From a virus, in the UHGV virus genome UHGV-0125199: DNA of 64,000 nucleotides. One strand, 5' to 3'. Below, one piece after another: positions 43,314-46,096 of this stretch. Numbering within the stretch: the first letter of the stretch is position 1; every line of letters starts with the position of its first letter. The notes beneath the pieces are model-generated. The model did not search any database. It saw nothing but the letters and a program-made list of their open reading frames with translations, and was not told the DNA's origin. The position numbers and the translations under genes are program-made.

Positions 43314-43538
43314 ATGGCTACATTGAGAAAAATGACAGAACAAGAAGTTGCAAATGAGAAAGCAGAAAGGTTAATGAACGGTATTGCTTATTGGGCAGCT
43401 TTTTACAGAAAAAACCCACAACGTTTTTGTAAAGATTATTTAAATATAACTCTCAAATTATTCCAAAAGATATTGCTATATGCAATGATGTGCAATAATT
43501 ATTTTATGTATATTGCCTCTCGTGGACAGGGTTTGTAA
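43314..43538 (+). CDS. terminase large subunit, exon 1 (N-terminus up to Walker A 'ASRGQG')
   Basis: '[35 protein letters not shown]...IASRGQG' typical TerL N-terminus; ORF stops right inside the expected G-K-S/T of Walker A. Confidence 0.6.
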
Positions 43539-44530
43539 AAATATCACGAGTGGAGGAAATAACAAATGAGTAAATATGTTTACAATAAAGATTATTTCGA
43601 AAAAATTAACACATCAGAAAAAGCATATTGGCTAGGTTTTTTATATGCAGATGGATGTATTACAAGATTTTATAAGGGAGAAGTATTAAAATCTATGTCT
43701 TTAGAAATTACTTTAAAAGACGCAGATTGTGAACATCTTATTAAATTTAAAAACGCTTTAGAAAGTAATATTCCTATTCAACATAGAATTATTACCGGGA
43801 AATATAAAGCAGATAGAATAGTTGTTAATTGCACAAAAATATGTAATGATTTAATCAAATTAGGTTGTACTCCGACTAAAAGTCTAACATTAGAATTTCC
43901 TATAAAAGATATAATACCTCAAGATTTTATAAGAGACTTTATTAGAGGTTATTTTGATGGAGATGGTGGTGTATCTTATACTGAAGGTAAATATTATAAT
44001 AATGCTAGAAAAAAATATTACAAACAGCATCACTATCGATGCTATTTTTGTGGAAACATACAATTTTTAACTGAATTAAAAAAAATATTGAATTCTAATG
44101 GAATTAAAACATCTGATCTAAAAAAAGACAATAGAAGTAATGCAATTAATATTTATATATATGGAAGAGAAAATATAGAGAAATTTAAAAATTATATATA
44201 TACAGAGGGGTGTGTGAACTTATCAAGAAAATTTGATAAGTTCTTTTTTATTTCCCACAATAGCGATCTTCATATAAATAGATAACGCCATGTTTAGCCC
44301 TGTCTAAATTGGGGAAAATCGGTGAAGACTAAATTTATTTAAAATATAAAATAAATATGTTAATACCGAGATAACTTAATAGATTTCGTAAGGCTATTAA
44401 GCATTGTAGAGAGTAGAGATTGAATAAATATAATATCTCCAAGAGTCCCCAACTACATTATTGTAGAAAATGTACTCCAAGCTGAGTTGGAAATGACCAA
44501 CTGATGAAAATGAAGGAAACTTCCAGAGCA
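43536..44530 (+). mobile_element. ~1-kb intervening sequence in terminase large subunit gene carrying a LAGLIDADG homing endonuclease ORF (probable group I intron)
   Basis: TerL reading frame resumes at ~44531 (in-frame '...[18 protein letters not shown]...'); HE ORF free-standing with own RBS. Confidence 0.55.
43566..44285 (+). CDS. LAGLIDADG-family homing endonuclease (two-motif, single-chain)
   Basis: 'AYWLGFLYADGCI' and 'FIRGYFDGDGGV' LAGLIDADG motifs. Confidence 0.75.
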   Translation: MSKYVYNKDYFEKINTSEKAYWLGFLYADGCITRFYKGEVLKSMSLEITLKDADCEHLIKFKNALESNIPIQHRIITGKYKADRIVVNCTKICNDLIKLGCTPTKSLTLEFPIKDIIPQDFIRDFIRGYFDGDGGVSYTEGKYYNNARKKYYKQHHYRCYFCGNIQFLTELKKILNSNGIKTSDLKKDNRSNAINIYIYGRENIEKFKNYIYTEGCVNLSRKFDKFFFISHNSDLHINR

Positions 44531-46096
44531 TAGGATAAAAAACCTATGGTTAATAACATACTGAAAACATGGCTTACTGCTCTATTCTGCGTCGTTCGTT
44601 GCATATTATTCCCAGGAAGCAAGATATGCATTGCTTCTTCAACAAGACCACAAGCGAATCAAGTCCTTTTGAAAATAACCGATGATTTTTGTAAAAACTA
44701 TGGATGGGGTTCAGATAATTTGAATAATGAAATAGGGTACAAATCAGTTGGTGCGAATAATGCGGTGATTGAATTTAAAAATGGGTCATGGATAAGAGTT
44801 GTAACTGCATCTGACAGTGGACGAGGCGCACGTGCAAATATTCTAATTGTAGACGAATTTCGTATGGTTGATTTAAATGTTATTAATACTGTTCTTAGAA
44901 AATTCTTAACAGCTCCGCGCACCCCAGGATATTTAAATATAAAAAAATATTCTCATCTAACTGAGCGTAATAAAGAAATATTTATGTCCAGCGCATGGTA
45001 TAAATCTCATTGGTCATTTGAAAAAGCGAAAGCATATGTCGTGAATTTTTTAGATAATAGTAAAAAATATTTTATTTGCGGACTACCGTATCAAATAGCA
45101 ATCAAAGAAAATTTATTATCAAAAGAACAGGTTGAAGATGAATTTTCTGAGCAAGACTTTGATCAAACATCTTTTGATATGGAGATGGGATGTTTATGGT
45201 TTGGTGATACGGACGGTTCGTTTTTTACATTTGATGATTTATCTAAATGTAGAAAAATAAAAACACCGATGGAGACACATTTTTTCAAAAATAAAAAAAT
45301 ACCAGACTTAGCCCTTAATGAAAAAAGAATTATGTCTGTAGATATTGCATTAATGGGTTCTAGTAAATCAAAGAATAATGATGCAAGTTCAATTTTAATT
45401 AATAGTGCTCTTCCAACAGAAAGCAATGAGTACATTTCAAATATTGTATTCTTAGAAAATCATGAAGGACTTACAACTGACGAATTAGGAATTATTGTCA
45501 TGAGATTGTTCTATAGGTATAAATGTACAGATTTGGTAATCGATACAAATGGAGCCGGTTTAGGTGTATATGATTTTATTATAAAGAATCAGTTAGATCA
45601 AGAAACAGGTGATGTGTATAAAGCTCTTACTTGTTGTAATGATAAAGACATGGCAGAAAGATGTAAAGTCGAATCGGCAAATCCATGTATATGGTCGATA
45701 AAAGCCAATGCTGCTTTTAATAACGAGATGTGTGTTATGCTTCGTGCAGGAATACAAAATGGGAAGATCAATCTTCTTGTATCAGAATTTGAAGCAGAGG
45801 AAATATTAAGAGACAAGATTAAGTCATATTCAAAGATGCAATCTTTTGAACAATTAAAATATAAAACACCATATATTCAAACAACATTGCTGATATATGA
45901 ACTCATAAATTTACAGCATAAGATAGAAGGAACAAACATTAAAATAAAGGAAAAATCTGGTATGAGAAAAGATAGATATAGTTCTTTGGGATATAATTAT
46001 CACATATTAAGAACATTAGAAAAAAATCTTAACACAGATTCTTATTCTTCAGATTTTTCAAATTTTACCCCATGTATTTCTTCTATATCATTTTAG
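44531..46096 (+). CDS. terminase large subunit, exon 2 (Walker B + nuclease domain)
   Basis: 'ANILIVDEFRMV' Walker B; length and position; follows exon 1. Confidence 0.6.

Follow-up and report, generated by a model that had tools for sequence, protein, structure and literature searches.

A probable LAGLIDADG-bearing group I intron divides the Walker A motif of a phage terminase large subunit gene

Background

In the 64,000-nucleotide stretch of virus genome UHGV-0125199 analysed here (the window), the gene for the terminase large subunit (TerL) is broken within its Walker A motif, and an endonuclease gene lies between the two parts. The question is whether the parts are exons joined by RNA splicing, separate genes for two polypeptides, the flanks of an intein or the remains of a decaying gene. 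LAGLIDADG domains are found in inteins and, in rare cases, also in group II introns, and the insertion of endonucleases is known to split phage genes in general. A preliminary description of the locus had proposed a group I intron with a homing-endonuclease gene. Our analysis of the sequence supports this proposal through a covarying core with a P3/P7 pseudoknot and through P1, P10 and a terminal (omega) G placed at the junction. Considering all this evidence, we conclude that region 43533-44563 is very probably a mobile group I intron of IA type, which splits the Walker A motif between its Gly and Lys codons.

Terminase exons and splice junction

The first part of the gene belongs to an ORF at 43314-43538 whose product ends in YIASRGQGL. 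The preliminary description had this frame ending in IASRGQG directly before a stop; the peptide is indeed found near the stop, but a Leu codon precedes it, and the intron begins with this TTG and the TAA that follows. As also described, the TerL frame resumes downstream: it is open from 44546, homology restarts at 44564 (KTWLTALF) and the Walker B motif ILIVDEF is encoded at 44840-44860. Joining 43532 to 44564 restores ASRGQGKT, a canonical AxxxxGKT Walker A motif, in agreement with the proposed break inside it.

The spliced TerL (583 aa) is 47% identical to the uninterrupted YonF of SPbeta over 561 aa (E 2e-175), the junction being spanned without a gap in tblastn and BLASTP alignments, and the joined protein matches Pfam Terminase_6N (29.3 bits, cutoff 22). 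This alignment with an intron-less homolog, which had been suggested as a check, placed the splice junction exactly, between the Gly and Lys codons of Walker A (GGT / AAA ACA). The intron ends were set by the gapless YonF alignment and by the group I rule that a U precedes the 5' site and a G closes the intron; the only other junction giving G-K-T, 43531/44562, was rejected because it violates both the U and the G rules.

The terL arrangement recurs, with 98.5% identity and the same stops, in an independent IMG/VR contig of 161 kb (L081) and is therefore not an assembly artefact. In SPbeta, the portal gene yonE comes after yonF; the gene 3' of terL in the window (46112-47797) has no family match in Pfam or PHROG, and terL-portal synteny is therefore only presumed. 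A megablast search with 20 kb of the phage returned no cultured relative, its matches being limited to the P9 domain of the intron and 1 kb of a faecal phage that lacks annotation.

The terL gene of this genome should therefore be annotated as one spliced gene, join(43314..43532, 44564..46096), encoding 583 aa; two terL fragments with an unrelated ORF between them are a wrong gene call. The same error affects the same intron family in deposited records, among others the terL of vB_CpeS-1181 and the gyrA of phiR1-37.

Table 1. Coordinates of the terL locus in the window; intron and ribozyme elements are predicted
Feature	Position	Strand	Remarks
TerL exon 1	43314..43532	+	73 codons, ending ...ASRGQG; from ORF list and YonF alignment
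P1 5' strand CAGGGU	43527..43532	+	last six exon bases
U43532	43532	+	final base of exon 1; 5' splice-site U
Group I intron	43533..44563	+	1,031 nt; first base past U.G pair to omega G44563
Shine-Dalgarno GGAGG	43552..43556	+	9 nt 5' of endonuclease ATG
LAGLIDADG homing-endonuclease gene	43566..44285	+	239 aa + stop; free-standing, wholly within P1 loop (L1)
Ribozyme core region	44290-44563	+	about 275 nt, compact, 3' of endonuclease ORF
P10 guide AUGUUU	44290..44295	+	pairs with 3' exon AAACAU (44565-44570)
Internal guide sequence, P1 3' strand GCCCUG	44297..44302	+	pairs with 43527-43532
P3 5' strand	44309..44314	+	pairs with 44447-44452; 98.6% paired, 5 of 6 pairs compensatory (37 sequences)
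J3/4 AAAA	44315-44318	+	
P4	44319-44324 / 44364-44369	+	domain 44319..44369; 100% paired, 3 pairs compensatory
P5, AT-rich hairpin	44327-29 / 44359-61	+	inside P4, with A-rich J4/5 and J5/4
P6	44370-72 / 44403-05	+	domain 44370..44405
P6a	44375-82 / 44394-401	+	conserved loop AUUNCGNAAGG
J6/7 GUA	44406-44408	+	
P7 5' strand G[A]GAGUA	44409..44415	+	pairs with 44473-44478; A44410 bulged
P7.1 hairpin GAGAU / AUCUC	44416..44439	+	near-invariant 14-nt loop UGAAUAAAUAUAAU
P3 3' strand CCCCAA	44447..44452	+	
P8 hairpin CUACA-UUAU-UGUAG	44453..44466	+	92% paired, 5 of 5 pairs compensatory
J8/7 AAAAUG	44467-44472	+	
P7 3' strand UACUCC	44473..44478	+	
P9	44482-84 / 44524-26	+	P9 domain 44482..44548
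P9a	44485-90 / 44497-502	+	
P9b, GAAA tetraloop	44512-15 / 44520-23	+	
P9.1	44529-34 / 44543-48	+	
Terminal (omega) G	44563	+	intron ends ...ACUG
TerL exon 2	44564..46096	+	510 codons + stop; starts KTWLTALF

The endonuclease gene

The free-standing ORF with its own ribosome-binding site, noted earlier as a LAGLIDADG gene, is confirmed as such by a match to Pfam LAGLIDADG_3 (45.5 bits, cutoff 22.5; 9.4e-12) and is also matched by PHROG 4645 'endonuclease' (1.6e-49). Its product contains two LAGLIDADG-type motifs (LGFLYADG and IRGYFDGDG), as monomeric enzymes do, and an acidic residue closes each of them. No chain was matched in a PDB sequence search, which leaves the enzyme without a structural homolog by sequence, and tblastn revealed no further copy in the window beyond 43566-44285. 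Homologs of the enzyme are encoded directly 5' of the core in many members of the intron family. Made from its own ribosome-binding site, the enzyme would be expected to cut intron-less terL around GGACAGGGT^AAAACATGG in a co-infection and so to drive homing, the predicted cleavage target being the intron-less terL site GGACAGGGTAAAACATGGCTT.

Structure of the ribozyme core

The preliminary description had spread the core over 43530-44540; it was found instead as a compact unit 3' of the ORF (Table 1). The 278 nt 3' of the endonuclease gene have homologs among the intervening sequences of many phages, and in JCL1032 terL and AR9 gyrA these family introns lie within joined, spliced deposited CDSs. 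We scored a canonical group I structure (P3, P4, P5, P6/6a, the P7 pseudoknot, P7.1, P8 and P9; 61 pairs) on 37 non-redundant cores. Pairing reached 94.1%, whereas slid controls gave 34-42%, and compensatory change was seen at 50 of the 61 pairs; none of 500 shuffles attained these values. Because the structure was partly derived from the window sequence, the percentage paired is inflated in the comparison with the slid controls, although the compensatory counts are not. All the nested helices were also found by RNAalifold without structural input. The single-sequence MFE fold of 44286-44563 (z = -2.99 versus shuffles, a moderate value) fails to give the group I fold; it was set aside because the pseudoknot cannot be drawn in it and AT-rich regions are mispaired.

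Helix by helix, P6 and P6a together are 99% paired with compensatory change in nine of 11 pairs, the middle P6 pair being GC in 17 sequences, AU in 15, CG in four and UA in one. P7 is 100% paired and crosses P3, which forms the pseudoknot. The G44411-C44477 pair adjoining its bulge is invariant (37/37) and is presumed to be the guanosine-binding pair, while the closing pair past the bulge covaries (GC 17, AU 16, CG 4). P7.1 is 100% paired with compensatory change in all five pairs. P9 and P9a likewise pair in full (100%) and show compensatory changes; P9b and P9.1 aligned less well (64-80%). Positions A20, A21 and A58 of the alignment row, in the P4-P5 domain, are invariant or nearly so. The joining regions are short and A-rich, with an invariant A in J4/5 (AA) and invariant As in J8/7, and we infer tertiary roles for J3/4, J4/5, J6/7 and J8/7. 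An alternative P4, made of CGGUG and the CAYYG segment 3' of P6a, was rejected because AR9 and phiR1-37 covary with a proximal ACCG partner; CAYYG corresponds to the P6 3' strand.

The window copy lacks P2 and has a small, AT-rich P5, keeps every family-invariant column and has no broken stem pair. Judged from its sequence, the P7.1 hairpin, the only one between P7 and P3', assigns the intron to subgroup IA as a whole. The strain variant L081 differs from the window by one substitution in 1,031 intron positions and by none in the core, and in L056, the nearest copy that is distinct, whose TerL is 71% identical, nine of nine stem differences retain pairing (seven compensatory, none broken).

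Intron boundaries and predicted splicing

P1, P10 and the terminal G all fall precisely on the junction obtained from the protein alignment, with the U.G wobble U43532-G44297 at the 5' splice site exactly at the protein-homology junction. A G occupies the matching inferred intron end in nearly all relatives inspected. L056 has the same internal guide sequence as the window, and its P10 (guide AAGUUU with exon AGACUU) shows a compensatory A-U to U-A change. The P1/P10 pairings of L055, L110 and L027, which are short or ambiguous by eye, were left out of the evidence. P1 is a long-range helix because the ORF sits in L1, and since it has to close over 764 nt that are being translated, folding could be slow or require cofactors.

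Beside the observed anatomy, homology, covariation and exact restoration of the frame, a course of splicing can be predicted from group I chemistry; its catalysis and the order of its steps are predictions, like the endonuclease target. Briefly, P1 would form between exon CAGGGU and the guide GCCCUG, which lies 765 nt downstream, with the endonuclease gene looped out in L1, and the core (44309-44548) would fold into a P4-P6 and a P3-P7-P8 domain. Bound at G44411-C44477, an exogenous guanosine would attack after U43532; P10 (AUGUUU/AAACAU) would then align the 3' exon, G44563 would occupy the G-site and the exons would be ligated. The expected product is one mRNA for a 583-aa TerL with the intact P-loop ASRGQGKT.

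The Rfam negative

The Rfam group I model, put forward earlier as a check, was negative: cmscan found no RF00028 match in the whole window at the gathering threshold, and none in 43400-44700 at E<=10, where only a chance snoR31 match appeared. As a control, RF00028 also misses five compact ORF-less relatives (JCL1032, AR9, L011, L110 and L055), including introns deposited as spliced genes, and the window result is therefore a false negative that reflects the sensitivity limit of the model. The preliminary description would have abandoned the intron if no group I core were detectable and the two TerL halves were made as separate polypeptides; the silence of Rfam seemed to go half way towards this, but the core is backed by covariation. 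The standard Rfam check thus yields false negatives for an entire abundant family of phage group I introns, and split phage genes should therefore not be discounted on the strength of a negative cmscan.

Alternative explanations

Without any splicing, a homing-endonuclease gene might have split terL into two genes whose products are translated apart and assemble non-covalently. Related 'fractured genes' have been described (PMC2677866), and the locus offers several features for such a reading: exon 1 ends in a stop, an in-frame ATG stands at 44546 with AGGA about 10 nt 5' of it, and Rfam finds no intron. We nevertheless hold it to be very improbable. The break lies inside the P-loop (GxxxxG / KT), so that neither TerL half would have a functional Walker A motif; the ATG and its AGGA fall within the P9.1 hairpin and the 3' tail, which are conserved in the family whatever the host gene; and the covarying core and exon-matched P1 and P10 are left unexplained. 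That the intron is decayed, or terL a pseudogene of a defective prophage that makes no functional TerL, is extremely improbable. The genome is known from metagenomic assemblies only and has no cultured relative, but both exons are open, with 47% identity to YonF over the full length, the endonuclease ORF and all stem pairs of the window copy are intact, the single change of L081 in 1,031 positions lies outside the core and the changes in L056 preserve the structure. As for an intein or a group II intron, the chance is negligible. The earlier argument against an intein stands, because stops separate all three ORFs, the endonuclease has its own ATG and ribosome-binding site, and no Hint/intein domain was found with Pfam, which found no reverse-transcriptase domain either. 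Against a group II intron, the non-coding part of about 275 nt is too small and folds with group I topology, and the group II families of Rfam gave no match in the whole window or, at E<=10, in 43400-44700.

A different matter is whether a genuine intron splices by itself or needs a protein cofactor, for instance a host chaperone or the LAGLIDADG protein acting as a maturase. The long-range P1 with its 764-nt translated loop, the missing P2 and the small AT-rich P5 speak for such help, and LAGLIDADG maturases and host factors that aid the splicing of bacterial and phage group I introns are documented (PMC3984707). On the other side, all core helices and conserved single-stranded nucleotides are intact, and the existence of ORF-less relatives with the same core (JCL1032, L011, L055 and L110) indicates that the RNA does not generally depend on the LAGLIDADG protein; we regard the need for a cofactor as unlikely. 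The mobile group I intron described above is thus retained as the best explanation.

The intron family and its P-loop sites

A search with the P7.1 loop motif brings up more than 120 IMG/VR contigs; nhmmer with the family alignment found no second intron copy in the window. Introns of the family occupy the same G / KT position in the unrelated TerLs of JCL1032 and L011. It is possible, though on balance doubtful, that they form a large coherent IA-type clade that Rfam cannot detect, a distinct and uncatalogued subgroup which has repeatedly colonised P-loop codons. So delimited, the clade would span these contigs as well as phages of Clostridium, Staphylococcus and Lactobacillus, jumbo phages of Bacillus and Yersinia, and crAss-like phages. 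Its LAGLIDADG genes typically stand just 5' of the core, a place that in the window copy is the P1 loop, and its P-loop (G / K-T/S) sites comprise at least two TerL families, with two sites 6 nt apart, plus a helicase. If real, a clade preferring P-loops would account for many split or duplicated ATPase calls in gut-phage metagenomes and would warrant a dedicated covariance model.

Comparison with known systems

Group I introns in terminase genes are already established (PMC4299906, PMC11878797, PMC3984707), and PMC4299906 cites Mikkonen and Alatossava (1995) for them. Known terL introns include those of LL-H, JCL1032, Moonbeam and the Bastillevirinae; the intron of the window adds one to this list and no new principle. 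Those of the Bastillevirinae (PMC11878797) and Moonbeam (PMC4299906) are group I introns, mostly IA-like, often with a homing-endonuclease gene borne in a loop, and splicing of the Bastillevirinae introns was examined by experiment (PMC11878797). Compared by description, their endonucleases are of HNH/VSR type and the introns were found by Rfam and GISSD models. LL-H itself gave no BLAST match, and its intron may therefore belong to another lineage.

The core of the JCL1032 intron is homologous (80% identity over P4'-P7.1) and aligns through every helix, and the intron interrupts Walker A at the same place (AACGGT / intron / AAAACT, that is G / K-T). Its P1 (AACGGU/GCCGUU) and P10 are built alike and P2 is missing as in the window; it differs in being ORF-less (about 230 nt), in its short form of P9, in its Lactobacillus host and in a TerL of another family than the SPbeta-like TerL of the window. 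The gyrase A introns of the Bacillus jumbo phages AR9/PBS1 (gyrA, a three-piece join) and of Yersinia phage phiR1-37 have, by eye, the same core topology overall, and the P9 domain of the AR9/PBS1 introns is 96% identical to 44481-44557 of the window. They differ by their host gene, a diverged P4-P6 and a larger, branched P7.1, and the AR9 copies examined, unlike the window, are without an endonuclease ORF. In the crAss-like phage cr6_1 (NC_055894), gp53 is separated from the DNA helicase gp51 by an intervening sequence that the record does not label as an intron. This sequence carries a LAGLIDADG ORF 5' of a homologous core; the enzyme is 39% identical in amino acids to that of the window and the core 70% identical. 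There the insertion is probably also in a P-loop, since the 3' exon restarts with AAG AGC (K-S), but the host gene is another one and the ORF runs into P4'-P6 rather than stopping before P1'.

Finally, the classical IA2 introns (T4 td, nrdB and sunY, SPO1, Twort) are likewise compact IA introns that pair additionally between P7 and P3', sit in essential conserved genes and carry a free-standing endonuclease gene that is looped out. They have P7.1 and P7.2 and usually P2, and GIY-YIG or HNH enzymes are encoded by their ORFs, which lie in the P6a, P8 or P9 loops. The window intron, in contrast, has only one P7.1 hairpin, lacks P2 and bears its LAGLIDADG ORF in L1. With a homing element set where the DNA of an essential gene is most conserved, the locus reads as a textbook case.

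Split terL gene and exon junction

BLAST against phage genomes retrieved SPbeta-type terminases (yonF) that match both halves of the terminase large subunit (TerL) contiguously. Joining 43532 to 44564 yields a 583-aa protein which is 47% identical over 561 residues (E 2e-175) to YonF, the uninterrupted SPbeta terminase, scores above the Pfam Terminase_6N cutoff and reads ASRGQGKT, a canonical Walker A, across the join. The alignment to YonF is gap-free at this junction, so that comparison with an intron-less homolog, as proposed in the preliminary description, did place the splice sites. 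A second junction, 43531/44562, likewise gives G-K-T in the protein. In group I chemistry the 5' splice site must follow a U and the intron must end in G; since only 43532/44563 satisfies both demands, the intervening sequence was taken as 43533-44563 (1,031 nt). The re-opening of the TerL frame downstream with a Walker B ILIVDEF, also described earlier, was recovered; exon 1, described as ending in '...IASRGQG' and then a stop, does end near there, with one further Leu codon between the Gly and the stop.

Features of the interrupted terL gene, its endonuclease gene and the predicted intron helices (window positions)
Feature	Position	Strand	Remark
Exon 1 ORF	43314-43538	+	
Exon 2 ORF (long TerL)	44546-46096	+	open frame
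Walker B	44840-44860	+	ILIVDEF
Shine-Dalgarno of endonuclease ORF	43552-43556	+	GGAGG
Endonuclease ORF	43566-44285	+	239 aa, own ATG
P1	43527-32 / 44297-302	+	CAGGGU (last six exon bases) / GCCCUG; U.G wobble at splice site
P10	44290-95 / 44565-70	+	AUGUUU / AAACAU (3' exon bases 2-7); guide just upstream of GCCCUG
P3	44309-14 / 44447-52	+	
P4	44319-24 / 44364-69	+	
P6	44370-72 / 44403-05	+	
P6a	44375-82 / 44394-401	+	
P7	44409-15 / 44473-78	+	
P7.1	44416-20 / 44435-39	+	
P8	44453-57 / 44462-66	+	
Terminal intron G	44563	+	

Endonuclease gene and predicted splice-site helices

The free-standing LAGLIDADG frame with its own ribosome-binding site was confirmed: database hits for the middle ORF are Pfam LAGLIDADG_3 (45.5 bits, cutoff 22.5) and PHROG 4645 'endonuclease' (1.6e-49). 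Its two LAGLIDADG-type motifs, LGFLYADG and IRGYFDGDG, make it look like a monomeric double-motif enzyme. A sequence search of the PDB gave zero matches and tblastn found no paralog elsewhere in the window; homologs adjoin dozens of the retrieved family cores (tblastn). From the positions of the two P1 strands, the endonuclease gene lies wholly inside the P1 loop (L1), with four bases between its stop codon and the P10 guide. By a rough hand estimate, a 6-bp match with G.U allowed at fixed positions has a chance of ~(6/16)^6, or ~0.003 per helix. We also observed a possible 6-bp hairpin between CTCGTG (43519-43524, exon 1) and CACGAG (43545-43550, intron), whose loop would enclose the 5' splice site and which ends 1 nt upstream of the Shine-Dalgarno. 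Such a hairpin could be a chance match, or it could act as a rival of P1 or affect how the endonuclease is translated.

The relative L056, whose TerL is 71% identical to that of the window and which carries the same endonuclease at 66% identity, retains the GCCCUG guide, and its P10 (guide AAGUUU, exon AGACUU) shows a compensatory A-U to U-A change. Over 61 core pairs the two copies differ at 9 (7 compensatory, 2 wobble, none broken), and this copy is independent comparative support for the predicted P1/P10 assignment. A strain variant (161-kb IMG/VR contig) matches the window at 98.5% identity over 6.6 kb; within the intron it differs only at 43903, a substitution that falls in the endonuclease gene and leaves the core unchanged. 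No close cultured phage was found by megablast.

Probable ribozyme core

The structure model was drawn by eye from homologs and then scored on 37 non-redundant cores lacking ORFs, aligned with MAFFT; besides the tabulated helices it contains J3/4, P5, J6/7 (3 nt), J8/7, P9, P9a, P9b and P9.1. Standard pairs occupy 94.1% of the cells versus 34-42% in controls whose 3' strands were shifted by 1-3 columns, a contrast that is somewhat inflated, as the window sequence itself helped to shape the model. Neither the RNAalifold result nor the counts of compensatory changes carry this bias. Both sides change at 50 of the 61 pairs, and none of 500 shuffles reached the observed measures. Without a supplied structure, RNAalifold, which is incapable of predicting the P7 pseudoknot, recovered P3, P4, P5, P6/6a, P7.1, P8, P9 and P9.1; of the 46 pairs it predicted, 39 show compensatory changes. 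The group I pseudoknot arises from the crossing of P3 and P7. A P7 G-C pair is invariant (37/37) and adjoins a one-nucleotide bulge, beyond which the closing pair covaries (GC 17, AU 16, CG 4); this is the classical guanosine-binding-site geometry. The single P7.1 hairpin between P7 and P3' (all five pairs compensatory, loop near-invariant) indicates subgroup IA. All family-invariant columns are kept in the window copy. The structured RNA is packed into the last ~275 nt of the gap and not spread over 43530-44540, the range named earlier for the Rfam check.

The Rfam group I model RF00028, suggested in the preliminary description as a check, stayed silent, both on the whole window at the gathering threshold and on 43400-44700 at E<=10. 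At E<=10 it also found none of five compact ORF-less relatives of ~230-280 nt (L004, L006, L011, L055, L110), a control set that includes the introns of JCL1032 terL and AR9 gyrA, two genes whose records give joined CDSs. The model is therefore blind to this family and its negative result on the window carries no weight.

Interpretation

Comparative sequence evidence makes it very probable that the element is a functional group I intron. It would be a mobile subgroup-IA intron that separates the Gly codon of the TerL P-loop from the Lys codon and houses a LAGLIDADG homing-endonuclease gene in L1; once spliced, the transcript would encode one 583-aa TerL. The covarying core and the P1/P10 helices at the exact protein-derived junction uphold the original proposal of a group I intron and homing endonuclease within Walker A, which had also rejected an intein; stop codons, domain content and size rule out an intein and a group II intron alike. 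Expression of the gene in pieces without splicing is poorly supported, because the break falls within the P-loop, the putative start site of exon 2 belongs to a conserved intron hairpin, and a complete ribozyme matched to the TerL exons would be left unexplained. For a decayed element or pseudogene, likewise poorly supported, one would have to set aside that the window copy is intact and that differences among related copies preserve structure. Splicing of the group I intron may be protein-helped rather than fully autonomous, since P1 has to close across a translated 764-nt loop and the window copy is without P2.

Neighbouring RNA genes

Upstream of the packaging genes by ~10 kb, at 33231-33828 (+), Rfam finds ROOL at full length (RF03087, 340.9 bits, model positions 1-574). 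The function of this large structured RNA is unknown; tRNA genes at 33926-33997 and 34279-34351 adjoin it. Two more tRNA genes (41055-41126 and 42162-42231, +) are found just upstream of the terminase region. As the mechanically called ORF 41030-42121 begins over the first of these, its true start is probably an internal ATG (MVTLQKIGG...).

Intron family and insertion sites

Homologs of the 278-nt stretch that separates the endonuclease stop from exon 2 occupy non-coding gaps of split genes in many phages: Clostridium perfringens phage vB_CpeS-1181 (a 200-nt match at 80% identity, flanked by two 'terminase large subunit' CDSs), crAss-like phage cr6_1, Yersinia phiR1-37 gyrase A, Bacillus AR9/PBS1 gyrA, several Staphylococcus phages and Lactobacillus JCL1032 terL. 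A 20-base motif of one conserved loop occurs in >120 IMG/VR contigs among the matches listed; in the window, nhmmer found only one copy of the family. The P9 domain (44481-44557) is 93-96% identical to two AR9/PBS1 gyrA introns (L004, 1501-1577 and 1961-2031), the remaining AR9 core being too diverged for BLAST to join; comparison of these sequences suggests very strong constraint on a P9 module, or its exchange between introns. In the deposited records of vB_CpeS-1181 (MW478292; L001 839-3793, two 'terminase large subunit' CDSs), phiR1-37 (L005 139-3133, 'DNA-gyrase IV A-subunit' and 'DNA-gyrase A-subunit') and cr6_1 (L002 2698-4703), the halves are annotated as separate CDSs and the ribozyme core is unannotated.

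JCL1032 and L011 carry family introns at the same G|K-T position as the window but in an unrelated TerL, with analogous P1 (AACGGU/GCCGUU) and P10 (AGUUUU/AAAACU). Other SPbeta-like TerLs have same-family introns 6 nt upstream, at R-G|Q-G-K-T (3' exon CAAGG...): L027 (2924/4236), with its own LAGLIDADG gene, and the ORF-less L110 (4018/4295), L055 (632/904) and L093 (4306/4602). One P-loop thus holds two adjacent insertion sites, and intron-less alleles also exist (SPbeta, phi3T). By a rough regex with some false positives, the terminal G is followed by AAR and a Thr/Ser codon in ~24 of the 97 non-redundant members (including L002, L006, L011, L034, L053, L056, L064, L066, L072, L112, L120 and L121), which fits putative insertion at the Walker A G|K-T/S of different ATPase genes, namely TerL families and the cr6_1 helicase.

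Relation to known introns

The most useful by-products are a corrected terL gene model and the demonstration that RF00028 misses an abundant intron family. No new principle is required; the intron sits in a 161-kb phage that is uncultured and has a TerL like that of SPbeta. Terminases are among the typical phage intron targets (PMC3984707): knowledge of their group I introns goes back to LL-H (Mikkonen & Alatossava 1995, as cited in PMC4299906), and for those of Bastillevirinae there is a recent survey with experimental work on splicing (PMC11878797). Most endonucleases of phage introns are of the GIY-YIG, HNH, PD-(D/E)xK or EDxHD types (PMC3984707), so LAGLIDADG is a less common choice in the classical literature; within the family of the window intron, predicted LAGLIDADG genes are common.
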